Shown here: piece after piece, positions 4,251-51,800 of the stretch
Numbering within the stretch: position 1 is the stretch's first letter
Layout of the letters: each line of letters begins with the position of its first letter
Source: Clostridiales bacterium DTU072
Lineage (GTDB): Bacteria > Bacillota > Clostridia > Christensenellales > DTU072
DNA: 64,000 bases
NCBI GenBank assembly: GCA_001512685.1
Contig: LFSG01000046.1
Coordinates: 17,707-81,706, forward strand
Direction of reading: 5' to 3'
Translations under genes and position numbers: made by a program
Notes under the pieces: model-generated
What the model saw: the letters and a program-made list of their open reading frames with translations, nothing else
Told to the model about the DNA's origin: nothing
The model's database searches: none

Positions 4251-4931
4251 TTATTCAACAGCTTTATTCTTTTTTTGACGCAATTTATACATAATAAAAG
4301 CCGAAATGACGGATATTCCCATTCCTATGGGTATCATGGTGGATTGCCCTATGTCGATTTTTAACGCGAATGTTACGCAGGCGATGGCCAGGCATATTAT
4401 GAAGGGGGCTATGGTCAGCTTAAAATAACGGCTGAGCAGCACCACTCCCAAGCCTCCGAAAATGGCGGGTATGACATAAGGGGAAACGGGAGACAGCGCC
4501 TTTACTATGCCTTCGGAGAATAAAGACAAGGGGATAAGCCCTATTACGATTATCAGCGTGGTAACTATGGTGGAAACCGATACCGATATGGTGGTTACTA
4601 TCTCCTCTTCTTCGCTGCCTTGTTTGGTGTTCAATATGGTTTGGGCGTTGACGGCGCAGGGAAGCTTAAGGTTAGCGATATTTCCCGTAATGAACGCTTG
4701 ATATTGTCCGCCGCTTCCCAGCAGCGGCCCGTAGCTTACCGCTTCCACCAGCCCTATGGCCCAATAGCCCAGAATAAAGGCAAAGGCCTTCAATATCGCT
4801 TTCCAGTCGGGAGAGGTTTTTGTTATCAAACAAAAAACCACTGGCGCCAACGCTATTACGGCGATGGATATGGCGCTGAACAGCCTGCCCAATTTGTGTA
4901 TCTCATTGTTGAAATTCTGTCTGTCGTTCAT
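4251..4931 (-). CDS. Integral membrane protein (226 aa), unknown function
   Basis: Multiple hydrophobic helices. AAGGAGG lies upstream of the ATG. The gene is tightly packed between the upstream membrane protein gene and the ATPase gene. Confidence 0.75.
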   Translation of the reverse strand: MNDRQNFNNEIHKLGRLFSAISIAVIALAPVVFCLITKTSPDWKAILKAFAFILGYWAIGLVEAVSYGPLLGSGGQYQAFITGNIANLKLPCAVNAQTILNTKQGSEEEEIVTTISVSVSTIVTTLIIVIGLIPLSLFSEGIVKALSPVSPYVIPAIFGGLGVVLLSRYFKLTIAPFIICLAIACVTFALKIDIGQSTMIPIGMGISVISAFIMYKLRQKKNKAVE

Positions 4932-11073: not shown

Positions 11074-11168
11074 TTTTTCTCCCAAAGTTTATTTTGTGTA
11101 ATTATTTTAATTTATCTATCTTTATAAGTCAAATACGGGCAAGGGCTGAAAGGCAAAATTTGACCATT

Positions 11169-28900: not shown

Positions 28901-31900
28901 AGATTTTCTGGCTATATACGACTATAAAGGGGACGCCGCCGATATTTTGCTTGCCACCGCCGAAATTTTGGGCTGGTATGAAGTGGTAACCGTTAACGGC
29001 GTGCCCAGAAGAGTATATCATAACACCGAAAAGATATACCTTTACATACATATCGAGTCCGCCGAAGTAAAATATTTGCCTTTGGAGGAATCTCACAACC
29101 TTAAATCGGGATACAAGGACATTCTTGTTACTTCCCAATCCGAATATGAGCAAAAACTGAGAGTGCAGCAGTTGTTCGGAGTTAACGCCGACAGCGAAGA
29201 TTTTGCTTATCGCGAATTCGTCATATATATGGACGCTTACAGAAATTCCAATTACAAAGGAAGTTTTGTTCCTCCCGCCAACCTTGTGGTAGGCTACGCC
29301 GACCCCGAAACCGTTCATACTTTCTCGGCTTTGAAATACTATTACCAAGGTTATGAAATCACAACCATACCTTATGGCATTACGGGTATTATTTGTCAAA
29401 GCGACCTGAACGGCGATTATCTTGTCATCAATAATAGAAAAGTGTACTTCATATCGGGCGACGACAGGTATAACATGACGCTGAAGGTTGAATTGGGGGC
29501 GGGGCAGACCATTGCGGTGAGAATTCATTTCTTTAACAAAACCGTTAAGGCGGTCAGACCCATAATCGAATACGGCGACGAGGAAATAAGGCAGCAGATA
29601 AGCCAAGCGCTTGCGTCGGAAATGGAAAAGATACAGCTTGCCGCTCAAGAAAACATAAACATTAAGAAGCTTGAGCACGAAATAACCGCCGTTTTAATCA
29701 AAAACCGCGAAATAAAAGAAACCGTAAATAAAAATTATATCTATGCCGAGCTTAAAAAGATAAGCGCGGACAATTTAAATAACGGTTCAGCTCTGGAAAG
29801 AGTAAGGCAGCTTTTGGATATAGCCGTAACTATTTTTGAAAACCCCGGCGTTGACGAAACAGATAAAAGAAATCATAATTACGCCGCGCATATAGTAATC
29901 GAAATGCGCGAAGCTTTATTCGATGACGCCGTCAACGCGGTTTACGGCGCTCTTGAGGCTTATTTGAGAAACCAGGCGGGAGCCACATTCGGCGATATCG
30001 AGCAAGCCGTTACCTCTTATCTTGACGATTTATTCAACAACGCGGGAGTCAAGATTATAAACAACAAGATAATTGACTTTGCCGAGCCTCAAATAAGATA
30101 TCAAATAGAACAAATGGAATTTGAGCAGCGCATTTATGTGGTCAGACTCAAAAACCAAATTCAATACGAGCTTAATGTGCAGAATATCTTAAATCAAATG
30201 CAAAAAATAACATTGAGCCAACTGACTCCGATCAGACTGGCTATCGAGGACATAATAAACGCCGAATTTATCAGAATGATAGAGGCCGTCAAAGAAAAGA
30301 GCGACGACAGCCAAGCTTTCGAAACTGCCGTTGAGAACAAACTTAAAGACAGAATGTTGGTACGCAGCGTGGAGCTTACCGATTTGTGCATTGAGCTGGC
30401 GCGAATACATATCGGAGAAATCACCGACGATCCCGAGAGTTTGATTAAGGCCTTCTTTGAGGAATTTTTCCACTTTATCGAAGACGATATGGACATGATA
30501 ATCATGGCCATAAAAGAACAAATAGAAAAAACAAGCGCCATATTGGTGGCCGAGATGAGAGCCAGCTATGACGCAGGGCTTGCCATAAATACCGGCGGCA
30601 GGCTTACCAGAGCCGTAAATCTCAGCATAGCCGAAACCATCAATAACATTATGCTGGAAGGAAGAATAGTGGACGCCATAAGACGGGCGCAAAATCTTAA
30701 CGAAGCTTATACATCGAACGGCCAGTACGCCATCGATCCTTACGGCGATTATATCTTTGTGCCTACGCGCGCCGAAATAATTTTTGACGAAGAAAACGGC
30801 GGAGAAAGCTATATCGTGAACATTAACTGGACCAAGCCTTCTCATTGGTCTACGCCCAGAAATCCCAACGCCGGAGTAACTTATGCCGGCAATGAGGCCA
30901 AAGAAATAGAAGCTCAAAACGACACATGGGTTTGGTATCAAAACGAGCTGGAGAGAAGAAAACTGGAAGTCTTTGAGACGGGCGGCCATTTGACGATTGA
31001 GGAAGAGCTTTTGGACAACATAATGCAAAGCATACTCAACGCCATATATACCGAGCGCCTGCAGAATGGAGCGCTTACCAAAGATCAGGGCTGGGCGGAG
31101 CTTTGGAATGACGCCGGCATAAGCCACGCCCACTTAAACTCCATTTTGAGCAGCATAGAAAAGCGTTATCCCTCGGACGACCAGACTCAAAAGCATATTT
31201 ATTGCTTTGATATGTGGGTATATATTGAGGCATGGAATCAATTGAGGGGCTATACCGTGCCCGACGATCCCGACACCGCCGCCAACGAATACGAAATATG
31301 GCAGGCGTTGCTGGTTAAGCTGGCGCGCAAGCTGCTGGCTATTCGCAGAGACGAATTTACGGCTAAATTATATACCGAAGGCGTGGGCGAACAAGACCTC
31401 AGCTTAATAGTGCTGGTGCACAAAAGAAGGCTGGACGCCGGCAGTTATATTCTGTATAAAGACGGATATGAATGCTCGCCCACCGATCCGATGTATCATA
31501 TTGAAGACCCCTTCGCGGGCAGAGTGTCCGATTTCCCCAATCTCATATCCGTTGACGACGGCGTAATAGTGGACGGCAAGGTTATCAGCTTCTCCAATTT
31601 GACGGTGGATTGGGATTATACCGACCAAGCCATTACTTACGCCGGAACGCTGGTCAAAAACGAAACCACCGGGCTTATGGGCGTAATAGTGAAAGGCTAT
31701 ATCAAAAACAGCGACGTAGGTCAGGAAGTCAGGTTAAGGCTGGTTGTGAATTCTTGGGAATACAATGACTCCGGCGTCAGCGGATTGCGTCAATATACCG
31801 GTCCTGCTGACGGGGATATTTATGACGAAAACAATTATACGATTATGGACCCCATAAGCTTTGTGTTCTCCAAGCTTGTGGATTATTCGGCTCAGGAGCA

Positions 31901-33881
31901 ATACCAAGTAATGATAAAGGAAACCTGTTATAAGCCAAGCTATGACGACAACGGGAATTTGGTGGAAGAAACCGAAGTGGTATACAGAAACGTGCTGTTC
32001 TACCCCGAAGACAGCCTTAAAGTCCGCGACAGCATTGACGACGCCGAGATGGCCGTAATCAAACAACGCAGAAATTATATTCTTTATTGGGACGCCGAAG
32101 CAAAAAGCTTGGCCTACAATTCGGGCGGAACGCCCGTTCTGGGCAGCTTCTCGCTGGGCAACGCAAGAAAAAATAAATTGACCAGATCGAACAGAGCCTA
32201 TTATCAATACGAGGAATCTTACATAAGCAAAGTCAATCCCATTGACTGTACTTTGGAAGATCTGCGCGATTGGCTATTGGAAAGCGGCAGAGCCGCCGAC
32301 CATACGGAAGCGACGGCGATGGCCGAGCAAAAAATGAAGGAACTGTATAACATTACGGGCGTATCTTCCTTGGTTATCAATCCTTTGAATCCCGTATTGC
32401 CCGCCACCGTCGACGCCAAAGGAATACTTAATCAGGTTAACGACACTCAATTGAACGGAATAAGGGTGCTGTGGAATAAGTCTTATGGCAAAGCCGTACA
32501 GGATTTGACGCAGTTTGTCAAGTATATGTATCCCACCCTCACAAACAATGAAGCCGACAGAAGCGCCAAAGAAATTTTGATGGATATAGGCAGAAGCGCC
32601 GCTCAAGAACAAGAGCTTATCGAAAATCTTATTGCTTGGCTCATGGATACTTGGTCCGCCCAGAATTTGACGCCGCTTACGGATATGGACAACGAAAACT
32701 GGGAGATTTATTATCATCACGCCAGCACCACTTCCGCGATAAGGACAAAAATGTCCAATATCATGGACAGAGTCGTTAACCAAAACGGCAACAGGACCAG
32801 CGTATATGACAAAAACGAAGGCTGGTACAAAATGTATACCTTCCTTGATTTGCTCAACTCCATAGAAATACTTACCGAGGAAGAAAAAGCCATGCTTTGG
32901 GACTTCAGGGTAAGCGGCGCGGCCGATCCCTTGCCTCTGCAAGATATGTATCAGAGAATCGCCCAAGCCAATCAAGGGCTGGATACGCAAAAATTGAAGG
33001 CGCTGGCGTTTGACGAATATGTAAAATGGGAAAATTGGTATACGCTTAAACTGAGATATACCGGATATACAAGATTGATTAACGAAACCAACAGCCTGTA
33101 TGATTATTTTGTCGTCCAATATCCTGGTCTTAACGATTATGAATACGGCGCCAAATGCTGGGATCATTATGTGTCAACATTCGGCAATGAAGACCTGGGA
33201 TACTTGAATACGCTCAGAGATTTGGCTCAAAGCAGGCATCCCGAATACGCGGGCCAAGACGATATGCTTAACGCCATAGCTTGGGACGAATGGATAAAAG
33301 CCACATCCTTCCGCGAATGGATGACAAGGCAGGCCAAAAACACGCTTATGATAGACGAAGAATACGACATTCATTCTTCAACGGGCTACCTTGACGGCGG
33401 CATAGACGGCACCAAGACCGTTACCTTGCTGTTGCAGCTTACGCAAGGCGGATATATCTATGCCCAAACCTTCAAAATCAGACTGATATTCCTTGATTTG
33501 TCGTCTCTTGCGTGTTACGCCGACACCGCGGGCAACAACAGAGTGTCCGCAATGCCCAAAGACAATCCGCTTACGGAAATGACCATAGCCGTTAAAGCCG
33601 ATTATTTCACCGACGACTATGTGGGCAGACTGAATCCTTACAACACCACAAACGCCTTTGTCTTTGATTTGCTGGATTATTTTGCCACGCGAGAATTTAT
33701 GGGCCAAACAGTCAATAAATACATAGACGGAGCGCAAAAGAAGGTTAAGCTCATCAGAATTACAAATATTGTATGGAATATTCCCGCCAACGCCCAAAGC
33801 GGCGATACCGTTTATTCAGATTCGTTTACGGTTGGCGAGATAACATATAAATCGGATTTATTGAAGATGGTATTAAGCTAA
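22989..33881 (+). CDS. Giant lipoprotein, 3630 aa, unknown function
   Basis: An uninterrupted 10.9-kb ORF. GTG start with GGAGG 6 nt upstream. Signal peptide plus lipobox (LLSLSIVAC). The head module is paralogous to those of the neighbouring genes. Beta-rich modules alternate with long helical regions. No enzymatic motif was recognised. Confidence 0.9.
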   Translation: MLHKINLRRVILVVLLVLLSLSIVACKELPPDDSPTYSINDDEKNQANKDQNTKETAIEKVTTSITNLKERLNSEKVGEGGYYLGFDFFINTAKNDNFILKLQAHLFTYPYMNEFGVIREDDLAKHNELIKKSTILLEWYDGRTNTMLIGFYFDGVKSNPHDPGNILYLNLQGEKRWFPDFGDTVLFQQMIRLITSFSIDDLLNKAGIGEDGGVSAIETLLDMAITNNYKVVVNHDEESNKDITSIRFDNVSLDMISEDLTEILQSIFSPFSNKIDPLTKKYLGFRFSTLGRTSIRKLNTNLQFFTEPDTDGLEDILTGAYVEMDGTAYVDSQSVPFTSVVNIYYGVAPPEPIQLDREYYKYFDYGKYEFTGNLYLPTMNLQMDALIRMKINEFDNTTNHVFSEFRDIANGDLLIGAYYKNELAYFDIEGLQHLYGGIKIDDIGFPKVFIEDWDLAKMLGSFKDMVDKAIISIVDNILDPLDRPKNNMLQVIMAKMESTERKDGDPLTVRNTVMIRIDHELLKDVLREGGYGTYTTRDIINIINAQLPITLDELCTILGITSAEILLEKTWIKLTLDVDTNMLTIQLYSDIGINVGEQPSKLLMQLDLIPVKIGEDMIIAEISFDNFKELLPIYTYSAEMGGQFIFSNAEVVDLSELLSSFMDDISGLNTPYILPAEAKLDFTLVYDQYIKEQYLQTVPGGPRDGRWTKASRNAFILNVFIKGTTPEDNITLFNIYANDVSFKTNAPEEDLGYIWVDLVCLRSNPDVPTIPKFKIREDYWLQSVNRYLNSTKASDNVQPILNPDISLSITTIISALMEDSYVVFQPEQIEITTSNETVQSIFGVESLIGTINAQIGLVQRVFGVDQIEDEFAEYSVGYFEDIYADGPYTTKLHETIDVTFTFNQNGRIWSETLPLRFKYEPKSVEVKEDPTIREYHPIIYGPILVSETSPLIHRFMGVQRGYTIYMTGGQNSRLKLRELANDDWYDPEEKRIITKEEIANYSESEKAYFESIKHKLLPHYRLEPRLPKPTEMELYAGGTGSSVIVTYEANILIDWESVTLAGGEYFTEVIIAEGMMGETVFPLHIVVTNRVVDTSNMNPQYVNVTANPDSDELTEAPVVDRISIDPYDYLWQKAIYFEQYFNHRVFDTPQSKEIARQQTNIAFIQYYFRNFDIAIRFVDFDVDVEDYRDTPAHRVNDLVWYFDRYEPTKYYKETDIVLSGGSTYLHADFKGQIVALQVVVESRTIRGVYFDGEEENNVYTVDMLDSDSYAIPLFPLIIFEEKDEGDRHITRRLIDADNGIEVPMLWSHPIVNNPRIEGTDTPFLGSASNLTSSYVDLYRALGVGEWIFKDYSPIVVIRVECPSKEIADLELPQPVYGYKNIDDWHSGITSEIKPSYINIGDDPTGFYYVDPFNPQTAKIPGHITVTFKGRLGHHDYYTKDYNVVWDTSSGLVRYDSQGDYYMLTVNSEEETYLQLTAMVGNEQVGYIEIVLCVKILTSHYTDINFFDDQGNKIDIGGTPEAGYVYYVNTYQGFKIPHSFAALFGESDVRYYNADWKGKNIYGEYVIDLKDIQFKPGSVIELKTTLPGAEGAVLEVRLTIDVNNVNIEKIIFTNIPMWKNLQGQLVKLPITLRLQDLNDLTLDGIRLNTEGKVENLYFGRGFYTYEEYEQAGVDVPYIEGIKDEWGNYIQLPVEPVSLYPYELLSILFLNTCLIFDDGSKMIKDYDIHNLRGIMDTQDIVQKVGDTANFNYGGGKYVVRLGQGQGAHDLTIRIRFTYGLFVEAGGQSESYDIELYNPDGTAIWGPEGFVLADNVSASIEVSVQETGNMVTYLYGPLHGQDAPRLDIWYVENSNVPSIPIGSYISYIPREILYDSSQNIVLELSFLTEKGFRIKRSFNIVKVSFLNMYRSIDTYDDIFTIENGRIVIKDLYKFYPLALYLNNADNLPKIINRHTSYYDITISDVQWTISQEWRDFLAIYDYKGDAADILLATAEILGWYEVVTVNGVPRRVYHNTEKIYLYIHIESAEVKYLPLEESHNLKSGYKDILVTSQSEYEQKLRVQQLFGVNADSEDFAYREFVIYMDAYRNSNYKGSFVPPANLVVGYADPETVHTFSALKYYYQGYEITTIPYGITGIICQSDLNGDYLVINNRKVYFISGDDRYNMTLKVELGAGQTIAVRIHFFNKTVKAVRPIIEYGDEEIRQQISQALASEMEKIQLAAQENINIKKLEHEITAVLIKNREIKETVNKNYIYAELKKISADNLNNGSALERVRQLLDIAVTIFENPGVDETDKRNHNYAAHIVIEMREALFDDAVNAVYGALEAYLRNQAGATFGDIEQAVTSYLDDLFNNAGVKIINNKIIDFAEPQIRYQIEQMEFEQRIYVVRLKNQIQYELNVQNILNQMQKITLSQLTPIRLAIEDIINAEFIRMIEAVKEKSDDSQAFETAVENKLKDRMLVRSVELTDLCIELARIHIGEITDDPESLIKAFFEEFFHFIEDDMDMIIMAIKEQIEKTSAILVAEMRASYDAGLAINTGGRLTRAVNLSIAETINNIMLEGRIVDAIRRAQNLNEAYTSNGQYAIDPYGDYIFVPTRAEIIFDEENGGESYIVNINWTKPSHWSTPRNPNAGVTYAGNEAKEIEAQNDTWVWYQNELERRKLEVFETGGHLTIEEELLDNIMQSILNAIYTERLQNGALTKDQGWAELWNDAGISHAHLNSILSSIEKRYPSDDQTQKHIYCFDMWVYIEAWNQLRGYTVPDDPDTAANEYEIWQALLVKLARKLLAIRRDEFTAKLYTEGVGEQDLSLIVLVHKRRLDAGSYILYKDGYECSPTDPMYHIEDPFAGRVSDFPNLISVDDGVIVDGKVISFSNLTVDWDYTDQAITYAGTLVKNETTGLMGVIVKGYIKNSDVGQEVRLRLVVNSWEYNDSGVSGLRQYTGPADGDIYDENNYTIMDPISFVFSKLVDYSAQEQYQVMIKETCYKPSYDDNGNLVEETEVVYRNVLFYPEDSLKVRDSIDDAEMAVIKQRRNYILYWDAEAKSLAYNSGGTPVLGSFSLGNARKNKLTRSNRAYYQYEESYISKVNPIDCTLEDLRDWLLESGRAADHTEATAMAEQKMKELYNITGVSSLVINPLNPVLPATVDAKGILNQVNDTQLNGIRVLWNKSYGKAVQDLTQFVKYMYPTLTNNEADRSAKEILMDIGRSAAQEQELIENLIAWLMDTWSAQNLTPLTDMDNENWEIYYHHASTTSAIRTKMSNIMDRVVNQNGNRTSVYDKNEGWYKMYTFLDLLNSIEILTEEEKAMLWDFRVSGAADPLPLQDMYQRIAQANQGLDTQKLKALAFDEYVKWENWYTLKLRYTGYTRLINETNSLYDYFVVQYPGLNDYEYGAKCWDHYVSTFGNEDLGYLNTLRDLAQSRHPEYAGQDDMLNAIAWDEWIKATSFREWMTRQAKNTLMIDEEYDIHSSTGYLDGGIDGTKTVTLLLQLTQGGYIYAQTFKIRLIFLDLSSLACYADTAGNNRVSAMPKDNPLTEMTIAVKADYFTDDYVGRLNPYNTTNAFVFDLLDYFATREFMGQTVNKYIDGAQKKVKLIRITNIVWNIPANAQSGDTVYSDSFTVGEITYKSDLLKMVLS

Positions 33882-36800: not shown

Positions 36801-39800
36801 AAATAGTCAACGGCGTGCCTTCCAATATGAGAAGCCCGGATTTAGGCGCTCCCGTTGTGGACGAAGTTACCATTGACCCGTATACTTACGCCATCAGAAA
36901 AGCCGAAAATGCTTTCTGGAATCCTCTTAAGACCTCTCTTACCTTAAAATTTGAGCCCGTCGAAGGCGAAGACATCGGCGATACCGTGAATATCAGCAAT
37001 ATCGAATGGGATTTTGACTTCAGCAATATACAATTTAACGGCGGCGTGTTCTTTACGCACGCGTACTACAATAAGCTGCTGATAGCTCTGAAGGTCAATG
37101 TAAAGTCAAAAATAGTGGCGTATTTAAGGTTTGTGGATATCGTCAACATCCATCTGCCCATGGACTCAAGGCCTTATACCGAGGCTCCGGCGCAGTATAC
37201 CGTGGATGTGCTGGATACCTCCACATATGCTTTCCCAACGGGCTCTACCGCCGAAAGACAGCTCAGGCTTTATTTTGAGGACGGCACTTACAGGATTATC
37301 GGAACAAGAGACCATACCTCTGACGACACAGAATACTTTAAGAATTATTTGCCTATTGTTTTGGAATGGAAGCATGCCACCGTAGATTACGCTTCCATAA
37401 GGCTGGTGGGCACAAAAGCGCCTTTAGGTCCCGTGGACAAGAATATCAATAGCGCCATTATCGGCAACGAAAGCTTTACCATAGGCGTTCAGCCCATTAC
37501 TTTGACTATTCTTATGCCTTCAAGGGCGGAAGCCACCATAGGAAACGCGGGCACCATTTATGCCATAACGGGATTCAACAGAAGGTTGGACGACAGCTAT
37601 AATTTTGAAGACCCCATAAGGGAGCATGTTACTTATACCAACGCAAGCTTTGCCCCCAATTTGCCTTTGGGAAGCTTCTTTGAATACAATCCTTACAATC
37701 AGCTGCCCCTACCCGATATTATCTATCTTGATGTGGAGCAGGGCGGCGAAAACAGGATACAACGCAAGGGCTATAAAGTGGAATGGCTGGAGTCTGACGT
37801 GTTAATGCCCAGAGATGTTTATGACGATTCCGGCAACAAAATAAAAACCGAATATGTGTTAAGAAATGTATATATCGACGAAGAATATTTTCTTGTAAGG
37901 GGTTTGGTGGGCAACGGCAACCATAAAATAGTGGTAAAAATGATTGTCAAGAACCTTGAAGCCGTTTATCAAAGCATTACTTTTGAGGGAATGAGCCCCA
38001 ATGTTACCCAAAAAACCATAGACCCTTATTTGCCGTATACCCTTCCCGCGCATTATACCCTTTTGCTTAAGAACGGAAACGAAATAAGAATAGACGCCGT
38101 GGAATGGTTTATTGTGCTGCAGCCAAATCAGAAATGGATGATGCAGCTTAACGGCAAAAGCTATCATTGGATATATGATTATATCGAATATTTGGACGCC
38201 ATAGCTCAAGGCTTGCCGCATGAAGACCTTGAAGACATAATTCCTCCCGGCTTCAGCGAGCCTACTCAAAGCGAGCTTGAGTATTTTCTGCTGCTGATAG
38301 AAAAAGGCGAAATACCGCTGGATAACAGATATGTCTTTTCCCATACCGGGGGAACATATGTATTGAAAAGCTATGTGGAGGCCTCGGAATCCATAATAGC
38401 TCAAGAAGTGTTTTTGACGCTTAACGTCATTCCCCGCACCGTATTGATTAAAGAGGACGAAAACGGCTATACCCAAATAGATATATTTAACAGCGGCTCT
38501 TCCCAGCCTTCTGAAAGGTTTACTTTGGACACCTACCATGTCAGCAGCGACACCATGCTTAAGAGGCTGGAGTATTTGCTGAGCATGAACGGCGAATATG
38601 AGCGTACCCTTAAGTTATTCAACAACATTTATATGGACAACAGAAAGGAATATCCGGAATTGGATTATATGCTTTTGTACGCTCAATGTTATGACGATTA
38701 TTACGCCGCGGTTAACCAAAGCGAAAAGAATGTTCTTACTTCGTATTATTATCAAACCATAAATATGATGCCCGACGCCATGCCCGAGGAGATTAAATAT
38801 TACGCTTTGCAGAATTATCTGGAAGATAAAAACGCCGAGCTGGCCAAAGCGACCGTGGGCATTTATTTCGGAGATTTTGAAGAAATCTCTATGAACAAAT
38901 ATGAATTGCATGTGCGGTGGATTAATATAGGGGAGATTATTGCCGCCTTAACTTCAAGCGAAGGGGCCATGAGCGGTATTGTGCTGGAAGGTTATATAGG
39001 ATATGGGCAAGTAAACCAGCAATTAATCCGCATTCCCTTCAATATTTCCAGAAGAAAAATAGTGAACTTCAATTTCAACAGAATGACGGGCTACGACCCG
39101 TCCATAATGAGCGTGGATTACCGCTTTGTTTATATCGGGAACGAAACTGAAGCGACGGCTTTGATTGACGACATTACCGACGCGGTATTGCTGGATAACA
39201 CCATTCCTCAGCACGAAAAATCATATACCATATTCACCAGACTTTACAATTATATTTCGGTTACCGATTATGACCGCGCCATAATGGACAGCGTGGAAGA
39301 AAGCATTTATCATGAAGACACCGAAATGCGGTACGCGTTGATTTTGCAGGAAATAAGAAGATTAAGGCTGGAGAACATAAGGACCGTGCTTATTGAAATG
39401 CATAAGCCCATGGGCTTGACGCAGCTTGACGACGACGGCGACAGGATATTCATGGCTCCCGCCGATTATTTCCTTAATTTATTTTCGCAGGTAAGCCTTA
39501 TGTTCGCCGACGGCACGGAAGGCTATTATGCCCCCCGTTTTGTGATGGGGAACGGCGCCACTCTTGAGGAGCAAAAAACCGATTTCAATCATAAACTGCT
39601 GGCGGTCAATCCCGAAAATGTGGAGCTTGATCCCGTTACAGGCAGAAGATACGCTTATGTCAATGTGTTGCTTACGCATTTGAGCCAAGGCAGCTGCGAA
39701 TATCCGGTTACCATAAAATTCAAAGCCATAGTGGACCAAAAGGGCGTGGTGGACGGCTATCCCACCGAGAGCGAATTGGATCCCTATGACGAATTCGGCA

Positions 39801-42800
39801 ATCCGCGCTTCTTGCAAGGCTACGCTTTGCCCAAAAAGATTACGGTAAATTACGATTATTCAGGCCCGGTAACTTTTGGCAATATTCCGTATTGGATATT
39901 GTCAAGCCCGCTGCAGGGCTATAACGAAGGCGATTTTCTTACCGTCATTCCCGTAACCAGCATTAATTTGCTGAACCCTTCCATTATTGATTTCCGCATA
40001 AATCTTCCTTGCTCGCAGGGAGAATATACATATCACATAAACTTCCCCCGCAAATACATAGGCAAGGTAATGTACAACGCCCAGGCGGAGGACAGCAATT
40101 TTGCCCAGCTCAATATCGAAAACGGCATTATTGAAATCAACAATTTATATCAAATATACGATCCCACAAAGCCTTTGGGTTTTGACATCGCCAAGCTTCC
40201 TACAAAAATAAATCCTTACAGCTATGAGTTCGGCGATGTGCAGTTTGATTTGGGCAACATGGTCATCGACACATATTTCACGGTTACTTCCAATAATTCT
40301 TATACTGTGGAATGGCGCTTGACCGACGAATGGGCGAGCGGCAGAAAGATTGACCACAACGGCACAGCCGTTAATGTCAACGGCGAAATAGTCATTGAGC
40401 CCGTATTGTTCGCCACCGCCAAGCTGTATTCCTATTATTATGTCAACCCCGATTATCCCGACCAGCCCATATTCCTTGAACAAGAAATCGAGCTTTACAT
40501 AAAGGTCAAGCCCATGACCAATCCCGTTATCGAGTATGACGGATTGGTGGAATACGCCGACAATAACTATATTACCTTTGACCCGTATGACGATCCCAAT
40601 GATTACGGCGGCAATCTTATCCTTCCCAAAGACGGATTAAAGGTTTATTTCAACGGCAGCAAGGAAGACATGCATATATTTGATTCAAGGGCGGCGCTCA
40701 GTTACGAGCTGCTTATGGCCGATGCCGACGAAAAAGTAAAGAGCTTGCTTTTTGACGCCTTGATGGCAAGGAGCGCGACGGGGAACATCGAGAAGCAAAA
40801 TTACCAAAAATTACTTATTAACGGCATAATAGACAGCTACGCTTTCGGAATGGGCGTTACCCGCCAGCAAGCAAGTCAAACTTTATTGTCAATCGCCTAC
40901 GATTTCCTGCTTGAAGGCAGCGGATACACAATGAGCGAACGCACCAATCGCAGGAGATTTCTTTTGGATTATTCCGTCAAGCTGTTTTCGGAAAATTACG
41001 GCCTGTCCTCTTATCAGGCATGGCTTAATTTGATGAGCCAAAATGTGGATTTGCAGTCAAGAGCCACTATAATCGACGATTATATGCGCTCTTTGGATAT
41101 CTTGACCGAGCAACAAATAATTGAAGATATCGATGTTTTGTATTTGGGCTATGACAATTTCTTAAACGAAATGACCTCTCAAAACCAAGAAAGTATTATG
41201 GCGCTGTATACCGCGGATTTTGATACCGCTTATAAGGCTTGGATAATCGATTTGCTTGCCCAAAGACAAGCTTATGAGATTGAACGAAACAACGCGCTTG
41301 AAGCCATTAATCAAGAAGGCGGCATAGCCGATCCCGTCCTGCTCAGGGCGGAAATATTCAACAGGGTTATGGTGGCAGTAAGCGCTCAAAGCAAGTTGGA
41401 TATTTTGCGGATAGCGGTAGAGAATGAACAATTTACTCAATTGATTCAAATAATAACCGGAAAAACTTTGGAGCAAGCGGCGGGGGCTTTATTGTACAGA
41501 AAGCTTGTTATCGCCGCCTACGCCAGAACCGAATTGCTGGCTATTCTCAATACGGCTTTGGCTTCCACCATAGAAGATTGGGACAATCAATTGACCGCAT
41601 CAAGGGCGTGGGAAACCCATCTTCAAAAAACCGTGGAAAGAGGCAGCTATGACAGCATAAAGAATTTGATTGAGCTTTATATGTCCGCTTCCGAAGATTA
41701 CTCCGTCGCAAGGCTTAAAGAAATCGTGATGAACCAATTGATAAACATTTATCAATATCGCGACGAGGATGTGGCTGAATACTTTAATAAGGAAGGCGCC
41801 GCCGTAGCCGTTGAGATATTTGCCACAGTTATCACAGGCTCTTCCGGTCAATTGCAGAATTGGCAGAACCAAAAAGCCAAAGCTGAGGTTTGGGATTATA
41901 TATCCAAAAGATTTGAAAACGACGGTATTTTGACAAGGATACTGCTGGGCGAAAACGATATTAACCAAAGCGGCAGGTTGGACACCGTTCCCATAAGGGC
42001 GTTGTCTTACGAACGGCTCAAGCAAAGCGAGATACTCTATATATTCTCCGCCAGACTTACCGCGCTTGAGCAGGAAGTTTCCGATCCCGATCCCCAAGCC
42101 AGAAGGGCGGAAATATTCGGCAGGCTTTATTCCATAGCCACTCTTGAAGAAAAGGTTATGCTTATAGAAATTATGATGGGGGCGGCCGAAAGAGTTACGG
42201 ACACGCAGGAAAGCGTTACCGTTATCGCCTATACTCAAGCGGGGCACAGCATCATAAGAATTGACGGAAACATACTTAAATTGTATTTGTACCTGCCCGA
42301 CGGCCAAAGAATTGATTTGATATTGGATATCTTCAGCAGGGAAATAAAAGAGACGCTGGTGCCCAATATCATTACCAATACCGAAGACGGCCAATTGATT
42401 TCCCAAGAGGTACAATTGCCCAACATATATTACATAGACCCCTACAATACCGAAACATTCAGATTGCCGCTGCAAGCCGAATTCGTGTTTGAATCGGGCT
42501 ATAACCTTATTCTTGACATTCCCGAATGGACGGATTTTGACGGCGATATATTCTATACCCGCAGCAGCGATTTCCCCAAGATATACTATTACAGATTTAC
42601 GGAAAACAGCTATAGGGGCGGCGTTTATACGCTCACTTCTTATCTTACTTACGGAAGGGGCGCCAATGCCGAAAAGCAATATTTTACTATTACGGTCATT
42701 GTGCTTAATCGCACGCTGAAAGAGGAATACGATGAAAAATTCCATTTTGACAATCCCATTTCGGGCAGAGAGGAAGATATCCCCCGTCAGCTTTCCGCCG

Positions 42801-45800
42801 ATATGTTCGTGGATATAGATTTATATTACAGAGGCTTGATTCCCGCGGAATATTACTATACCAATTTCGGCTCCCCCGTAGTGCCCGAAATAAATTGGAG
42901 CAAAACGGCGCTCAATGACCAAGGCATAACCGATTCGGATATTTCCGTTTCGGGAGGCTTTACCAAGCAGGTTAAGGGATACCTATATTATGACAACTTG
43001 CTTTTGACAAAGACCTATGACAAGCTTTGGAACGAGATATACCATCAATATGCCTCTCAAACTAAGCCCATGGCTTGGGAGAGCTTGTTTGAAATTACTT
43101 TTGAGGGGGAAAGAATAGTCAAAACCGTATTTGCCGGCGAAGCCGCCACGCAAATAAAGGCGCTTGACGATATGATATTTAACGAGCTTTATATAGACGC
43201 TTATTGGAGAACTTATGAAGAAGGCGACAGCAATCTGCAAAGCAAAATAGACAACTTGCTGATTACGCTGAAGAACAACAATATGGGACTGTATCCTTAC
43301 GATTCCCCGCAATGGTATGTGCTGCTTTTCAAGGATTTGTCCGCGAAAGCGAAGACCGATACTCTGCTGCCCATTGAAAGAGATGTTTGGACGGAGTTTT
43401 ACGCCAAATACGTAGAAGAAGAAACCTTTACCATCAAAGCGAGGCGGGAAGAAAAATGGAACCAGCTGTTCGCCATGCAGGGAGTATTAACCGATAACCA
43501 GAGAAAGATTGCCGAAGGTTATTTGAACGACGCGTATAAGCAATTCAGAAATTCCATGCTGGTAACCGTTTGGGATGGTCTTGAAAGACTGGCCAACGAA
43601 AGGGAAGCCGCCGTAATGGCCCAATTAATTGACACATTGAGGTATTTGTACGGAAGCACCGAACAGGCCAAAGTCAGGGCGTGGGATTTCCTTAAGAATG
43701 ACGACAGGGTAAAAGGCATAATCGGAGAATCGGCAAAGGTTACCATTACCGCCAAAAAATGGAGTCTTGTTGATTTGCGCAATCAAGCTCAGGAAATAAT
43801 AAACGAAATAATCTTCAACGCCTTTACCAAAACTACCAACGAGGAATATTTCCTGGCTGATTTCGAGGTAGTTAACAGCTTGCTTATTGACAGGTTGAAC
43901 GAATTGCTGGATCAAACCGTTCTTGAATACATTGACGAATATAAAGACGACGCTTTGCAAATCCTTAAGGATTATATTTATAACCTTATATTAAAAGAAA
44001 TGCTTAATATTGACAACGCCAATGCCGCCCTTGAGCCGCAACCCAGAAAAGCCAAAAACTGGACGGACATTATGGCGGTAAAAATAAATGAAGCCGTTGC
44101 TCCCATAGACGACACCAGACAAGATGTGGAAAACACGCACCCGGGCATTGACCAATATCAAAGAGATGAGATTGTTTGGACAAGACTGTTTGAAGGCAGC
44201 GGAGAGTGGCGTCCGATTATGGAGCAAATATACGGCCAAGTGCTTGAGGATTCTTCCATAAGCCCCGAACATTGTTATTATGAGGCGACGGAGAGATACA
44301 GACAAGCGCGCATAGACAGTTATACCCAAGAAATGAATGATATTTACGAAGACATATATTATCAACAAAGTCTTCAAGCTTGGGAAGCTGTGGAAAGCGA
44401 TCCGCATGCTTACGGCGAAACCCCGATTACAGTCGACGAGATTTTATACAGACAGATAAAAAGGGACGCGTGGATAAAGCTTTACGCCATATCCACCGAG
44501 CAAGAACAGATTACCATGAACAACAGGCTGAATGACGCCAACGAAGTTTATGCCAGAGCGTGGAACAATTATTTCAACGAAGTTCTTGATCCCAACCGCA
44601 AACAGCTTATGAGTTATTTGCTGGCGTACTATAAGAGCTACGGCTTTGCCTATGATTATATACGCCAAAACCCCTCCATATTAAACGAAACCGAGCAAAG
44701 TCTTGACGAATTGCAAAACCATATAGCGGCGATTTATCCTCAAGCTTGTCAAGAATTTGTGATCGCCGAAGCGGTAACCAGATTGCTTGCTTGCTATCCT
44801 CAGCAAGTAGGCCAAATAATAGCTTCGCGCGAAAACGCGCTTAAGCGCGAAGCTTGGTATTATCTTGTTTACATAAGAGATAACGCTTCGGTATTGACGG
44901 CGCTTATGCCCGAAGAAGAGCTTAAAGCGCTGAGCTGGGAGAGGCTGTATTCCCATAGGGAACAAGATGTTCAGGCCGAATATGACATAATTGAGGGTAT
45001 TTTTGACGATATCGCGCTTGAAATGATAGACAAGCAATACGCCGTGGCATATGAATATTTGGAAGACACGCTTGATGGGGAAAATAAAGACAAGCTGTTG
45101 CAATTCCATGCCCAAAGCGACCTTGACCAAATAAGGGCGGTTTTGTGGGACAGATTATATGCCCAATCCGACGATAAGATTTCAATGGACGCCGTTTATA
45201 ACATAATCCTTAACGAAGGAGTGGCGCCGGGCTCAGCCGCCAAGTCCAGAAGCTGGGAACGCTATATGGGCAAAAATGAAACCAGTGACGACATTAAAGC
45301 TTTGATGGAAGAAATGTTTGACACTTACCTTAAAGCGAGAGTGTTTGAGCAATTCCGCGATTGGTATCTCCAAAACAGCGTTTCCGAAGCGGATATTATT
45401 TATCAATATTATGTTGATTGCTTCAAGAAGTTTGAGGTATGGAACCAGCTTTATCAATTCGCGATAAGCAATGAAGACGAAGAATTGCAATTGCTTATGG
45501 ACGACATTCTTGCCGATGTCGCGTTCGGCGGCGAATACGAAGGCAGCAGCGAAAAAGAGATTTATGCCGCCGCCTTTGATATCCTGATAACGCAGTTAGA
45601 CCCCTTTATGGCCGATTACGCGGAGGTTTTGTTAAGTCAAGCTCAGCCTCGATATAAAGACGAGGCCGCCATTAACGCGCTTAAAGCCGACGAATGGGAC
45701 AATTTCCTTCAAAACGCGGACAGCGCCCGCTTGATTGAAATGAACAGAATCTATGATAAGTATTCAAGTATCCTCAACACCGTATACAGAAAAGCTTATT

Positions 45801-48800
45801 CGCTTGACGATCCCGAATTTACCGATATAATTTTGTCTTTACAGGAAAAACAGGATTTGGCAGAAAGGCTGCAATCCAAGATAGAGCAATTGCTTGATTT
45901 GCTGTTCATGGAATTTACCTTCCACGACCTTGCCCAAGTTCATAATGAAATATCAGATATATATGATACGCTGCTTAACAGAAAGGACAGCTTGTATTTT
46001 GACAAGGACATCCCCCTTTCGATACTTAAAAGACAAGCGGTGATACTGTATAAAGAATTGAGATATCTTCAAGCCCAAGATTATTTGGAGAGCGTATTCG
46101 TCGGCGCTTTGGCGGATTTTGAAAAAGAATTTAACATTGAAACCTGGAACAGATATTATCAATTTTGTTTGTCGCACAATGCCGCGCGCGCCCAAAAGAT
46201 GCAGGATATTCTCGCCCAAGCCACCGACAATCAAATAGACGGCATAAAGGTTGCGGCTTTGGATTATTTATACGCGGAGTTTATCGAACAGGCGGTATGG
46301 AAGATTGACTTAACCTCGGACGGCTTTACCGATGTCCTTAAAAAAGATTTATTGTGGCGGCAGCTGTTCGGCGAGGACACTTCTTCGCTTAAAGAAATCC
46401 TTAACGAAATATTGCCTATTGACGACAATCAAATGAGCGTTAAGGATATGGCGTGGCGGGATATGCTGGGGCATGTTCAAGCCCGAAGCGCGTATCTTGA
46501 GGATATGGTTCAATTGAGAAGCGATCTCAGACAGCTTTATCCTTATTACAGCGACAATCAGATTGACGAATTGGCTTTTGAGGAAGCCTATGCTTGGAAT
46601 ATAGACGAGCTTTGCCAATTGATGGACAGCGCCCTTGCCCAATACGGCGAAGCGGCAAGCGCAAGCAAACATCTTGCTTGGAGAGATTTAACGGAAAGCT
46701 TTGAGCTTGATAAAGCTTGTTATGACATTATGGTAAATGTCAGAAATATCGTATATTCAGAAAATACGCATTTGAGCGACGCCCAAATCAATATGCTGGC
46801 TTTTGAAAGAACGACAGCAAATTATCCCCAAGTGGGAGACAGGCTGGTCAAAGAATTTGTTTACGACTTAAAGAGCGCCGCTTTTGATCGGATAAACGAG
46901 ATTTATGCCCAGAATGCTGTTTTGCAGACGTTGTTTACCGAAATGTTCCATATGGAAATGCTTTATCACAATAACGACGAAATGGAAAGCAAGGCGGTTT
47001 GTTGGGATCGCTTGACGGGAATGACGGCTTACATAGAAAATACGCTTGCCGGCATCGACCCCAGATTTACCGAACAGGAATTGAGGGCTTTCGCCGTCAA
47101 TTGTTTGCTGGATATGCTGAGCGGCTCCGAGAGAACGGCGCTGTCAAATGCCGTCAACAATGTAAGCATACCGTATGCTCCCGAAGAAATAGACGCAATG
47201 ATTTATGACCTTATTTATGAAAAGATCATACCTTCCGAAAAAGCCATATTGAGAGAATTCTATGAGCAAAGTTCTCAGCCCCAGCACCTTAAGAAATCGC
47301 ACGCGCTGAGCTTGTACAGGGAATATAAATCCGATATCGCCGTAAAGGACATTAACGACATAGCTTTTGAACGTTATCAGAAATATTATGAAGAGCTGAG
47401 CGATCAGCAAAAGCTTGAGCTTTATACGCTTTTGCAACAGCCTCAAGCTGTGGGGCCCATGATTGTTTATACTTTCGATACCGCCATGAAATATTGGCAA
47501 GACGGCAGCGTGGACACCGAATACGCTCGAATGAATATTTTCTGGGACACCCAAGTGTTGGACGCCGGCGGCGACATAGCCTCAATATATATCGGCAACG
47601 CCTATAAAGCTTTTGACAACGAAGAAGGTCAATTCAATTACGCCGTCAATACGCTTGAGGGATATAATTATCTTTACAAAAACAGACAAATAGAAATAGA
47701 ATATTTGGACTTTTACGGCCGTTTGAATATATACGCGGGCGATGAAATTATTGACGTAAGGAATTATTACAACGAGCTGGTGATAGATCCCTTAAACGCC
47801 TTCATTCCCGACACCGTAGACGCTTACGGCAGAATAACCGGCGTTGAGCCCGATGTGGAAATAAACGGACAATTATATACCTATATAGGAAAGGTCAATA
47901 TCAGCTTTGAGAGCAGGATTTATGACTTCCTTTATGACGAAGAAGGCTCTTTGGGCGAAGATATTACGGCAACCGTTACTCCGGGCTTGGGGGCGGAGGA
48001 CCAGTTCCTAAACATCAAGGTATATTATTTGAACAGAGTCCCCGTAATGTATTATGTCAACAGCGAGCATTACACCAATGAGCTTATAGACGAAACGCTT
48101 ATGCTGTATCCGCTGTCCTACGACAATCTTACCGGCAACAAGATTCTGCGCATAGACCCGTTAAACGAAAGTATTTATAATAAATTCGCCCAAGAATATA
48201 TTTTGCCCAATTCGCTTGTGATTATGTTCACCGACGCTTATGCCGACGGTATTATCTCCACGCTGTTTATGAACGGCATATTCGATAAAAGATTGGATAT
48301 TACCGACATTCAATGGGATTTGGCGGGCAACGAAATAACGCTTAAAGGAGTCAACGCCAATATCCGCATAGGCGCTTACTCCGTGGACGGCGTGGCGCAA
48401 AGCTCCACCTCTTCGATGAACGAAGACTTCTGGGGAATTCAATTGATAGCGCCCGAATGCCGCCCTGAAAGAATACTTGAAGTCAATCAGCAAGGACACG
48501 GCAGCCAAACCTTGGCGTCCTTGACGGGAGACACTTTGAGGGCGATAGAAAAGATAGACCCGTATAACCCCATGGATTCTTTCCCCTCCAACGTAAGAGT
48601 GGAATTCGCGGGAGCCATAGATTCCAAGCTTATTACGGGCATTACTTGGCAATTTGTGGAGGGCAGAGATCTTGATTATCTTAAAATACCCGATGTAATA
48701 ACGGGCAAGAGAGGGGAAGAAGCCATGTATATCATAGGCGGATTCACTTGCGTGAGCGAAGTGATTTGGATTAACTTCCCCATAAAGAAAAGGCATATAG

Positions 48801-51800
48801 ATATCAGCGTGGAAGGTTCGGACGGAGAAATAAGATATATCGAAGGCGGCACCATCTATCTTATCAAAGATATGGACTTGAATACGCAATTGAGCAGAAT
48901 ATCTTATTTGTGCTATAATTTCGCGGAATTTGATCAGGACAGCGATTGGTCGGAAGTTCCGCTTGAGTTCTTGGCCAATGACCTGCTGCAGATAGATATC
49001 AATAAAGTGGGCGTTTATAGAGTGAGAGGGATTTTGGGGCCCATTAACGATCCCAATATAGTCTTTGATGTGGTGGTAATAGATCCCAAGCTCTATACCC
49101 TTGACGTTAACAATAATTTGAACGAGAAAGTTTATTATGACATGCTTTCGGTGGCCGTCAACAACCATGGGGTGAGGATTGAGGGCAAAGAAGGGGAAGA
49201 GGGCTTTTTGCCTCAGCATATGCTGCAGCTTAATGTTTACGATTCCAATAATAATATTATAATAGGATATAAAGAATTTAATATTATTAATACCGTATAT
49301 GATATAGCCAACAAGCAAGTTATATTTACATGCAATTATGTTTTTCTTGATGAAAACGACGATATCGACAGAATAGCCGGCAATCTTAGCGGCGGTCAGG
49401 AGTTGACCTTCACCGTTTCCATACCTCTTGAGACTTATTTGTATACCGCTATCGACGACAGCATGACTCTTGACACCGAAAAAGCCGAAGGCGTTAACAT
49501 ATTAAGGCATCAGCTGGGAGCGCCTCTTGTAATGTCCGACCTTCCCAAAGCTGTTATGAACAAAGGCAAGCCCAATGAATTTGAAGTAACGCTACTTTGG
49601 GATTTAAGCGGAATAAATGTCAACAGAGCGGGTTCTTATAACCTTTACGGTTATTACCGCGACTATACTTCTTCGTATATTACCAAGAGCAAGAGCTTGG
49701 TAGTGATTATCGACAAAATCGACATTTCTAACAATATAAGCGTTGAGGAGTCCACGATAAGGACTTATAACGGCTTATATATAAGGATGACTCCGGTATT
49801 GCCCGATGTGCTCAGAGAAAACGGGAGTTATGCCCAGCTGAGACTAGGAAGGGAAATAATAGTGGAGTACATAACCGAAGAAAAATATCTTCTCGGCGAA
49901 TTCGGCGATTTCAGGACTACGCCGTTTAAGGACGCGGGGAGTTATTATGTAAGGATTACCGTAGATGATTATAACGTTGTGGGACAATATGACTTTAAGC
50001 TTATAATCAATCCCATTGAAATCGATCCCGAAGATATTGGATTTGATTACGGCGCGGGCTCTTCCACGGTGTCGGTGCCCATACCCAATTGGCCGCAAAC
50101 AGCGGAAGAGAAAAACAGACTGTACTATACGCAATTCCGTCAGCTTGCCGACCAAGAGTTCGGACCCAATGTGGCCAACAGAGCGAAAGCGAACGCTTAT
50201 GATAAATTGTATGTCAAGGTCAATAATATAGCTCAAGATTTATTGAACAACAGATACATTGCTTTGCTGCAAGCCACTTATCCCGAATATGAAGACAGCG
50301 AAGAAGATGTTAAAGCGAATATAGAAATCGCGGTTAAGGCGATGGTATGGGATGAGATTGTTCCTTACGGCCTTGTCAGTCAAAGAATGGTCCCCGGCTG
50401 GCCAATAAACGAAGCCGAAAAGATACTCTTGCTTGAAGCGGCCGAAGACCAAGTGGCCCAAGAAGGCGAAGACTATACCGACAATGTGGTTAAAGCTCAA
50501 GCCTACGACAATTTGTATAACGGCGTAATCGCGCTGGGACAGATTTTGCTCAGCGAAAGATTGAATGAGATTATTCTAAATGAATATCCCGGCTATGACC
50601 AAGCCCCCGAATCCATAAAAACCGCAATGCTTATTGAAGCCAAGGCCAAGGTTTGGGACGAGATAGTTCCTACCGGGCTTATTAATAATCCCTTGGTGGC
50701 CAATTGGCCCTTGAAAGCCGAAGAAAAAGAACAATTGCTGGACGCGGAATACGAATTCTTGTTCGATCTTATATACGCAGGCAGCGAAAAGGAATATTTC
50801 ATTCAGCGAGTAAGGGCAAAAGCTTACGATATATTGTACGCCAATGTATATTCCACCGCTCAGCTTAAGCTTGAACAAATGGTAAGGACATTGATTGTGC
50901 GGCATTATCCGTTGTTCGATACCTATACCGAAGAGCAGCAAGCCTTGATTCTTGTAGAAATAAAAGGCTTGGCATGGCAGGAAATAATCCCCGGAGATAC
51001 CGTGGAAGAAAGAAGCTATATATATGACGGCCGCGAGCATATGCCCATTGTGTCGGGCTTGCCGCAAGCTTATATTCTGGGTTGGCCGCAGACGCAGGAA
51101 GAAAAAGACGCGCTGCTTAATCTTGCCCAAAACGAGAATATCAACTTTACTCTTGAGCAAGCAAAGGCAAGAGCCTTCGACAACCTTATGCAAACCGTTT
51201 ATTCCAATATTTACGCCTTAGAAAAGCTTAACAAAATATTAAGCGACGTAATTGACGAATATTATCCTCATTATTATAATCCCGCTTTGTCTTATGAAGA
51301 AAAGCAAGAAATCCTTATCGCCGCCAAGGCCGGAGCGTGGGATAACAGAGTTTTGCCGGGAGACACCGTGCAAGAAGTTAATTATACTTTCAATTTCTGG
51401 TATTCCGACATGGAAAACAACGGAATGATTGTCTATACGCGTCCCAAAGCCGCGGGCACATATGAATTGACCTTGATTATCGACCCTGAACTTAACAGGA
51501 ATTACAGGCTGAAGGGCGTTACGGGCATAGTAACCACTATCAGCATAAGAAGAGCGGTAATAGATCAAACCTTCGCCAATTACATGGTTTATCAAGGCAA
51601 GAATATTCTGCCCATATGCCAAGGCCTGCATGACGAAAACGGCGACCTGCCCGAGGGGGTCAGCATTGAGTACAGCTTTATGAAGGACGGACAGAAGGTT
51701 AACTATATAAGGGATGTGGGGCAGTATACCTTTACCGCTGTGGTAAACGGCGGCAACAATTATCCTTCATGGACGGTGGAGGACCAAATAATCAATATCG

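Follow-up and report, generated by a model that had tools for sequence, protein, structure and literature searches.

The segment of DNA analysed here (64,000 nucleotides, hereafter the window) lies on contig LFSG01000046.1 (positions 17,707 to 81,706, forward strand) of Clostridiales bacterium DTU072, whose 1.6-Mb genome is 97% complete. It carries on the + strand the gene for a giant lipoprotein of 6342 amino acids (aa), P0001 (33899..52927), adjacent to a co-oriented gene for a second lipoprotein of 3630 aa, P0002 (window 22989-33881). P0001 has a GTG start, a signal peptide with the lipobox MIS|C and a mass of ~0.7 MDa, and its reading frame is open across 6.3k aa in at least three genomes of the genus. 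Some 2000 of its residues are alpha-helical, 1500 of them contributed by degenerate helix-turn-helix modules with an invariant Trp; this helical module, which accounts for about a third of the protein, is the main subject of this work. Orthologues of P0001 are annotated as 'right-handed parallel beta-helix repeat-containing protein' in metagenome-assembled genomes (MAGs) of Christensenellales, and the NCBI source labels for orthologous proteins are Christensenellales, Clostridia or Bacillota MAGs. The C-terminal beta-helix of P0001 is indicated by these names and by PF13229 on the orthologue P0006.

The helical residues fall into two regions, which we designate R1 and R2. R1 (residues 2263-2768, 40685..42202, + strand; taken as residues 2264-2768 in our comparisons) is all-helical and contains few Trp. 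R2 (residues 3034-4558, 42998..47572, + strand) is a helical array of Trp hairpins with ~29 conserved Trp positions. Between them lies a beta-rich domain (residues 2769-3033, 42203..42997, + strand), for which AlphaFold2 (AF2) predicts strands at a low predicted local distance difference test (pLDDT) score. Further downstream, R3 (residues 5397-5832, 50087..51394, + strand) consists of four tandem units of ~100 aa; no other relatives of the R2 module are as well conserved. The original prediction for this locus had described R1 and R2 as two Ala/Glu/Leu/Gln/Tyr-rich helical stretches built from one short Trp-containing motif, and it placed them accurately: the AF2 helices extend over residues 2263-2768 (40685-42202) and from residue 3034 to ~4556 (42998-47572).

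Composition and predicted structure of the helical regions

AF2 models were built on alignments of 8 orthologues for residues 3400-4558 and of 7 orthologues for residues 2250-3449. The first model (m576702cdd8ab) has a mean pLDDT of 80.7 and a predicted template modelling score (pTM) of 0.40. The second (mee9f76dd5e6e) has a mean pLDDT of 65.5, with values of 80-94 over most of R1 (about residues 2290-2650). R2 is ~82% helix, with ~54 helices in residues 3400-4558, and R1 is 79% helix, with 29 mostly short helices (median 13 aa) separated by loops of 2-5 residues; the predicted secondary structure thus bears out the claim that the region is helical. Compared to the rest of P0001, these regions contain more Ala (2.3x), Gln (2.0x) and Trp (2.8x) and less Gly and Pro. 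The richness in Ala and Gln that had been noted earlier is therefore real, that in Glu (1.24x) and Leu (1.18x) is only slight, and Tyr is not enriched at all (0.93x). Readings of the region as a coiled coil, a membrane helix or a toxin were set aside, as it is highly charged and AF2 predicts intramolecular hairpins; toxin-like family matches were due to chance and far below the cut-offs.

The Trp hairpin module

A relaxed form of the motif, W[DENQRKTS]x[LIMVFY][LIMVFY], occurs 16 times in R2 as opposed to 1.8 times in composition-preserving shuffles, and none of 2000 shuffles reached 16. Its density in R2 (10.5 per 1000 residues) is ~30x the genome-wide value for all open frames that reach 150 aa (0.35). 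Six of the 11 genomic copies of an extended form, [KR][AS]x[AVLIS]W[polar]x[hydrophobic], fall in P0001. The unit (K/R)(A/S).(A/V)W(D/E).L(Y/F), which had been said to recur in both stretches, holds up in its relaxed form as a feature of R2 that exceeds expectation from composition. Its strict form is rare: the core W[DE]x[LI][YF] is found just three times in R2 and the half-motif [KR][AS]x[AVLI]W only once. In R1, which has just six Trp, the relaxed motif is absent (a version with either Trp or Tyr in the key position gives p ~0.03).

A logo centred on the 29 conserved Trp was derived from ten aligned orthologues, representing six genomes of the genus and four metagenomic giants. It is enriched for K at -4 (8.3x), A at -1 (3.6x), D at +1 (3.9x), L at +3 (4.4x), Y at +4 (5.0x) and M at +15 (7.0x), and reads, in order, K-4, A-3, A-1, W, D/N/Q+1, R+2, L+3 and Y/F+4, with the unexpected Met at +15 being followed by Asp. 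In the AF2 model of R2, the Trp typically lies 7-8 residues into a helix of 13-15 residues, which is followed by a turn of 2-3 residues and by a second, Met-bearing helix. The true module is thus longer than the motif originally described, comprising a short K-A-x-A-W-D-x-L-Y helix, a turn and a second helix with Met. A canonical Trp hairpin is encoded at 45122..45214 (+ strand) and reads LDQIRAVLWDRLYAQ-SDD-KISMDAVYNIILN, with the Trp in helix 1, the turn, and the conserved Met in helix 2.

We propose to define the core of this module as a helix-turn-helix of about 30-35 residues. Helix 1, of 13-15 residues, would have the pattern x-x-x-K-A-x-A-W-(D/N/E)-x-L-(Y/F); the turn would comprise 2-3 residues; and helix 2 would carry the conserved Met ~15 residues past the Trp, often followed by Asp or Glu. 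R2 agrees with this definition in its logo, in the place of Trp within the AF2 helices and in the motif enrichment over both the shuffles and the genome. On a helical wheel, positions -4, -3, -1, 0, +3 and +4 span ~160 degrees, whereas D+1 and R+2 point away. Because the motif residues occupy one helical face, the Trp is likely to be buried in the core and to pack against helix 2.

Internal repetition of R2

The gaps between the 29 conserved Trp of R2 have a median of 38.5 and a mean of 54 residues. The gaps range from 10 to 164 residues, and Fourier analysis of the 29 positions revealed neither a global period nor the ~34-residue period of TPR or Sel1 repeats (p = 0.99). Half of the gaps (14 of 28) fall within 23-41 residues, compared to 5.7 expected (p = 0.0004).

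Internal homology was examined by hhalign on 100-residue alignment windows. Within R2, 45 of 378 window pairs reached a probability of at least 50% and 14 of at least 80%, the best being 94.9%; by contrast, none of 261 pairs between R2 and R1, a helical control of similar composition, and none of 319 pairs between R2 and beta windows reached 50%. A single network comprises 24 of the 29 R2 windows as well as all R3 windows, and 1195 of the 1525 R2 residues participate in such alignments. R2 is therefore repetitive beyond its composition, as had been suspected. Two internal pairs were detected even by BLASTP: residues 4182-4232 with 4257-4307 (E 9e-5) and 3054-3182 with 3421-3543 (E 4e-4). The former are two adjacent units of ~75 aa (46442..46819, + strand; hhalign 93.8%), the clearest internal duplication in R2, which is missing from some orthologues; both consist of a W-helix, a long helix, YPxY or a similar sequence, and an LAFE helix. 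Whole-region hhalign with the -alt option lost power, and a hidden Markov model (HMM) of the 33-aa Trp motif produced only weak matches (4-11 bits), all of them in R2. Judging from the sequence comparisons, the units of R2 appear to be ~70-130 residues long, each with one or two Trp hairpins.

The absence of periodicity in R2, together with the rarity of the strict consensus (1-3 exact copies) and the failure of HMMER searches, whether based on the R3 unit or on the 33-aa motif, to find any significant match in R2 beyond one weak one, could suggest that the motif simply arises from composition or from amphipathic helices in general, with no true repeat family behind it. This explanation is highly improbable. 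The shuffles retain the composition yet fall far short of the 16 motifs observed; R1, with similar composition and helicity, shows none of the matches to R2 that R2 windows show to each other (0/261 against 45/378); and the Trp remains invariant in orthologues that share 20-40% identity and differ by unit-sized insertions and deletions.

Conservation and divergence among orthologues

Over R1 and R2, identity of the orthologues to P0001 is mostly 20-40%, as opposed to 50-69% elsewhere among the closer orthologues. R2 is the fastest-evolving part of P0001, diverging about twice as fast as the rest. Within R2, ~25 Trp columns are invariant or nearly so in the ten orthologues. At a threshold of at least 80% conservation, 25 of 31 R2 Trp (81%) are retained, compared to 17.6% of all R2 columns and 35.6% of columns in the flanking beta domains; Met (32%) and Tyr (30%) rank next. 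Overall, Trp, Met, Tyr and Leu are over-represented at the conserved positions of R2, where charged residues are a minority.

Length differences also follow the units. In about residues 4184-4324 (window 46448-46870), P0007 lacks 70 aa and P0009 lacks 141 aa, and P0009 additionally has the unit around Trp3933 (window about 45600) duplicated in tandem, over 70 aa. In view of this internal homology and these unit-sized insertions and deletions, R2 can be described as a decayed modular array.

The combination of fast-evolving surface positions with a retained scaffold would also be in line with R2 being a multivalent binding array, whose Trp hairpins or units bind a polysaccharide, a surface protein of a host or prey, or the 3630-aa partner lipoprotein; the model here would be the helical F/FG repeats of Embp, which serve as both rod and adhesin. 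That P0002, encoded by the adjacent and co-oriented gene, shares the module (see below) points the same way, as does the expense of 1500 residues in a 1.6-Mb genome, which suggests more than spacing. Moreover, the helical-bundle rods of Embp can themselves bind ligand (PMC7587433). Nevertheless, the conserved residues are Trp, Met, Tyr and Leu with few charged ones, and the motif occupies one helical face, as expected of a core; no conserved polar patch recurs across the units; and orthologues readily lose or duplicate entire units. We regard a binding array as rather unlikely.

Relationship of R2 to R1, R3 and P0002

R1 and R2 do not share a common unit, contrary to the original prediction. 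R1 has no profile match to R2 in any of the 261 window pairs mentioned above, and the R3-unit profile scores at most 12% against it over unit-length matches. It has a weak internal repeat of its own (best R1xR1 hhalign probability 70%) and constitutes a helical domain in its own right, made up of short helices.

The units of R3 contain the elements NWP..EEK, AKAxAYDxLY, YPxY and AKAxVWDEIxP. Common to the units of R2 and R3 are AKAxA(Y/W)DxLY, a helix, YPxY, and a helix that ends in a second K-A-x-x-W-D motif. A profile built from 28 R3 units matches R2 best at residues 3855-3947 (45461..45739, + strand; hhalign 79-85%), followed by residues 4407-4456 (61%) and, more weakly, 4097-4161 and 4291-4371, with all control windows below 1.5%. 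Likewise, positions 749-907 of the R2 HMM match residues 5420-5590, within R3, with an independent E-value (i-E) of 0.01; an HMM of the four tandem units, searched against the giants, had no significant match in R1 or R2 (best i-E 0.15). The proposed relationship between the tandem units at 50.1-51.4 kb and the Trp motif is thus moderately supported, and either R2 or the tandem units may hold the ancestral form. The most distant orthologues, P0010 (6752 aa) and P0011 (6803 aa), have ~150 extra residues inside the first R3 unit (equivalent to 50087-50395), which look like additional copies of the R3 unit.

Two segments of P0002 match the module. Residues 2675-2741 (31011..31211, + strand) match R2 units (hhalign 93.3% to P0001 residues 4239-4303), and residues 3236-3434 (32694..33290, + strand) match both R2 (95.3% to P0001 residues 4284-4373) and the R3-unit profile (59.8%). 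In the latter segment, Trp recurs every 41-44 residues and is invariant in 5 orthologues. Among the similar stretches that had been listed for the 3630-aa protein, those at ~31.0-31.2 and 32.7-33.3 kb are accordingly upheld (hhalign 93-95%), whereas the one at 29.6-30.7 kb contains no Trp and gave no match. On the strength of these profile comparisons, we assign the R3 units and the P0002 segments to the Trp hairpin module with moderate confidence; the assignment is not HMMER-significant genome-wide.

The N-terminal, beta-rich half of P0001 contains two small Ala/Glu/Tyr-rich inserts, at residues 1594-1654 and 1745-1837 (window 38678-38860 and 39131-39409). Their similarity to the profile of R2 is weak (i-E 0.15-0.17), and they could represent stand-alone copies of the module.

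Phylogenetic distribution

At the sequence level, R2 was detected in 6 of 6 genomes from the genus, whereas 75 further genomes from the family gave no match. When 1.84 billion protein representatives were scanned exhaustively with HMMER, six proteins were retrieved, namely four giants (6.2-6.8k aa), one fragment of 1273 aa and one of 55 aa. The R3 unit is limited to the genus as well, according to a profile search over 301 genomes from 150 genera of the order. Within the genome, HMMs for R1, R2, R3 and the motif match P0001 alone. A search of genome contigs for related loci likewise yielded no relative.

The beta domain (residues 2769-3033) is conserved throughout the family: 74 of 81 genomes, representing each of the 17 genera, encode it, in every case within a giant frame of 3.6-6.7k aa. 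The R2 HMM has no match in the giant orthologues of two other genera. In one of these genera, two orthologues, L044 (G007) and L045 (G022), are poor in Pro and Gly, and presumably helical, over 1.2-1.7k aa at the place that R2 occupies in P0001. This stretch follows the beta domain (residues about 700-2400 of the frames fetched) and contains isolated W-D-x-x-Y...M motifs such as RDVWDSIYAIGSIVERTKMESIL, again with no match to the R2 HMM. No Pro/Gly-poor stretch is seen in L046, a 3911-aa orthologue from a third genus. Given the family-wide beta domain and the Pro/Gly-poor stretch at the R2 position, R2 may either be old and diverged past recognition or have been replaced.

Genomic context

A third gene co-oriented with those for P0002 and P0001 encodes an M6 protease with a dockerin. 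The genome contains 12 open frames of more than 2800 aa (7750, 6343, 4383, 3908, 3783, 3630, 3363, 3322, 3228, 3197, 2890 and 2838 aa), which sum to ~146 kb or ~9% of the genome; three of them lie within window 22989-60026. The Trp motif is restricted to P0001 and, more weakly, P0002, and is absent from the other giants of the genome. Upstream, on the - strand (window 9727-11085), is the gene for a surface-type protein of 452 aa with leucine-rich repeats of the BspA type (LRR_5, E 1.7e-46).

Search for known families and folds

The original prediction recognised no named repeat family in these regions, and neither did our searches of Pfam, NCBIfam and PDB sequence profiles nor those with Foldseek against PDB and BFVD, none of which gave a significant match. 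Neither giant has a Pfam or NCBIfam match in the region of interest. In particular, no Pfam match to TPR, Sel1, HEAT, ARM, PPR, spectrin, FIVAR or GA was obtained for P0001 at E<=0.1 or for the 8 and 7 orthologous segments at E<=0.05, and P0002 likewise had no match to TPR or Sel1 at E<=0.1. The PDB sequence-profile search found nothing, and the matches to Elongin_A, SLT_beta and PP2A activator in the Pfam, NCBIfam and PDB profile searches were at chance level. In Foldseek searches of both models, no PDB entry scored below E 0.056 (template modelling score, TM, <=0.08) and no viral structure in BFVD below E 0.016. As Foldseek is weak on helical repeats, a remote structural relative may exist.

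In another reading, R1, R2 or both would be very divergent alpha-solenoids, TPR/Sel1-like or HEAT/ARM-like, and would be scaffolds for protein-protein interactions. The 29 short helices of R1, with a median length of 13 aa and loops of 2-5 residues, are typical of solenoids, and helices of the 'A-W-x-x-L-x-x-x-Y' kind recall helix A of TPR. In addition, the top non-significant Foldseek matches of R2 in PDB include the HEAT proteins Utp10/20, exportins and importin-4 (E 0.08-1.7, TM<=0.07). Set against this are the lack of any TPR, Sel1, HEAT, ARM or PPR match in P0001 or its orthologues, the lack of a 34- or 40-residue period, structural matches that stay at E>=0.056 and TM<=0.08, and the presence in R2 of helices of 45-63 residues, which are not solenoid-like. 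We consider a divergent solenoid quite improbable.

A putative stalk

We favour, with moderate confidence, the view that R2, R3 and the two P0002 segments form an array of a lineage-specific helical module that likely serves as a long stalk or spacer. The Trp hairpins would sit in helical units of ~70-130 residues that have been duplicated, deleted and diverged, resulting in an aperiodic array of more than 60 helices. P0001 would be lipid-anchored at its N-terminus and would carry the beta-helix domain at its other end, with the helical array between them forming a fairly rigid stalk or spacer that would measure tens of nanometres and keep the distal domains at a distance from the cell; R1 would be a separate short-helix domain within this stalk. 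It is the combination of the lipid anchor, the C-terminal beta-helix, the conservation of Trp, Met, Tyr and Leu, the turnover of units and the fast evolution that leads us to read R1 and R2 as a structural stalk.

The pTM of 0.40 fits a non-globular chain, and pTM values of 0.40-0.42 are compatible with, though no proof of, an elongated rod of connected triple-helix bundles. Spectrin-like end-to-end stacking yields about 5 nm per 106 residues. R2 might measure ~70 nm if its bundles stack as in spectrin and ~40 nm as a solenoid; both values are estimates only.

Several considerations weigh against a simple stalk. The helix lengths of R2 are very uneven (4-63 residues in the AF2 model), unlike those of classical rods built from a single unit. 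The low pTM may reflect mere uncertainty due to the 8-sequence alignment. The AF2 information used comprises secondary structure, pLDDT and pTM, and hence we infer the elongated shape, like the burial of Trp and the spacer role. P0001 itself is a putative membrane-anchored surface protein, whose expression and exposure are presumed. In a genome of 1.6 Mb, the cost of a 1500-residue spacer hints at a role beyond passive spacing. Finally, a surface diversifying under selection for binding or evasion could likewise show rapid divergence around a conserved core.

A more far-reaching proposal, which we deem unlikely, is that the Trp hairpin array, instead of being a passive spacer, plays an active part and represents a novel type of extracellular alpha-helical repeat, either as an extensible or force-bearing element or as a multivalent recognition surface. 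The two co-encoded giant lipoproteins would then share this repeat and assemble into an undescribed surface apparatus of small-genome Christensenellales.

If R2 is read as a stalk, its likely function is conventional and the finding overturns nothing: we are most likely dealing with a module without detected relatives that is confined to a narrow lineage and has a conventional structural role. Still, what is known of helical rods in giant surface proteins of bacteria comes from a few pathogens (Embp, Ebh), and P0001 adds a module that had not been recognised. Its definition provides a handle for annotating otherwise blank giants in Christensenellales, an order associated with the gut and with digesters, and the 70-100-aa units are compact and expressible for structural work. 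R2 also offers a clean case of repeat-array decay, in which units are gained and lost, identity drops to 20-40% and the Trp/Met/Leu core alone is kept.

Comparison with known systems

TPR, Sel1, HEAT and ARM solenoids resemble the regions described here in being made of helix-turn-helix modules, and the short helices of R1 are similarly regular. The small and aromatic residues at fixed positions of helix A are reminiscent of the 'W-L-G-Y' signature of TPR. There was, however, no match to a model of these families, no 34-47-residue period and no match in fold that reached significance.

Spectrin repeats and the talin rod are chains of bundles of 3-5 helices, each of ~100-130 residues, which are elongated and have a conserved aromatic core; spectrin repeats carry a conserved Trp. 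R2 would likewise be a chain of such bundles, with conserved aromatic residues presumed to lie in the core and a presumed elongated shape. It differs from spectrin in lacking a match to PF00435, the three-helix unit of ~106 aa, or any structural match, and in having heterogeneous helices in a protein that is bacterial and predicted to be extracellular. Phage tape-measure proteins, which are likewise long and almost purely helical, are the top, non-significant BFVD matches (E 0.016-0.07, TM 0.06-0.08). They show no significant similarity, however, and sit inside tail tubes instead of being lipid-anchored at the surface.

Embp and Ebh of staphylococci are Gram-positive surface proteins of ~1 MDa that consist mostly of alpha-helical bundles forming a rigid, elongated rod (PMC7587433). 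P0001 has neither FIVAR (PF07554) nor GA (PF01468) matches, and no PDB chain, Embp/Ebh entries included, matched the R2 model in Foldseek better than E 0.08. The repeats of Embp follow one another in tandem with near regularity, in contrast to the aperiodic and highly diverged array of R2; furthermore, Embp and Ebh are anchored C-terminally to the wall or membrane and P0001 through its N-terminal lipid. What they have in common with P0001 is a giant, cell-anchored protein with thousands of helical residues in addition to other domains, and by this analogy the helical-bundle rod of Embp and Ebh appears to be the closest functional analogue of R2.

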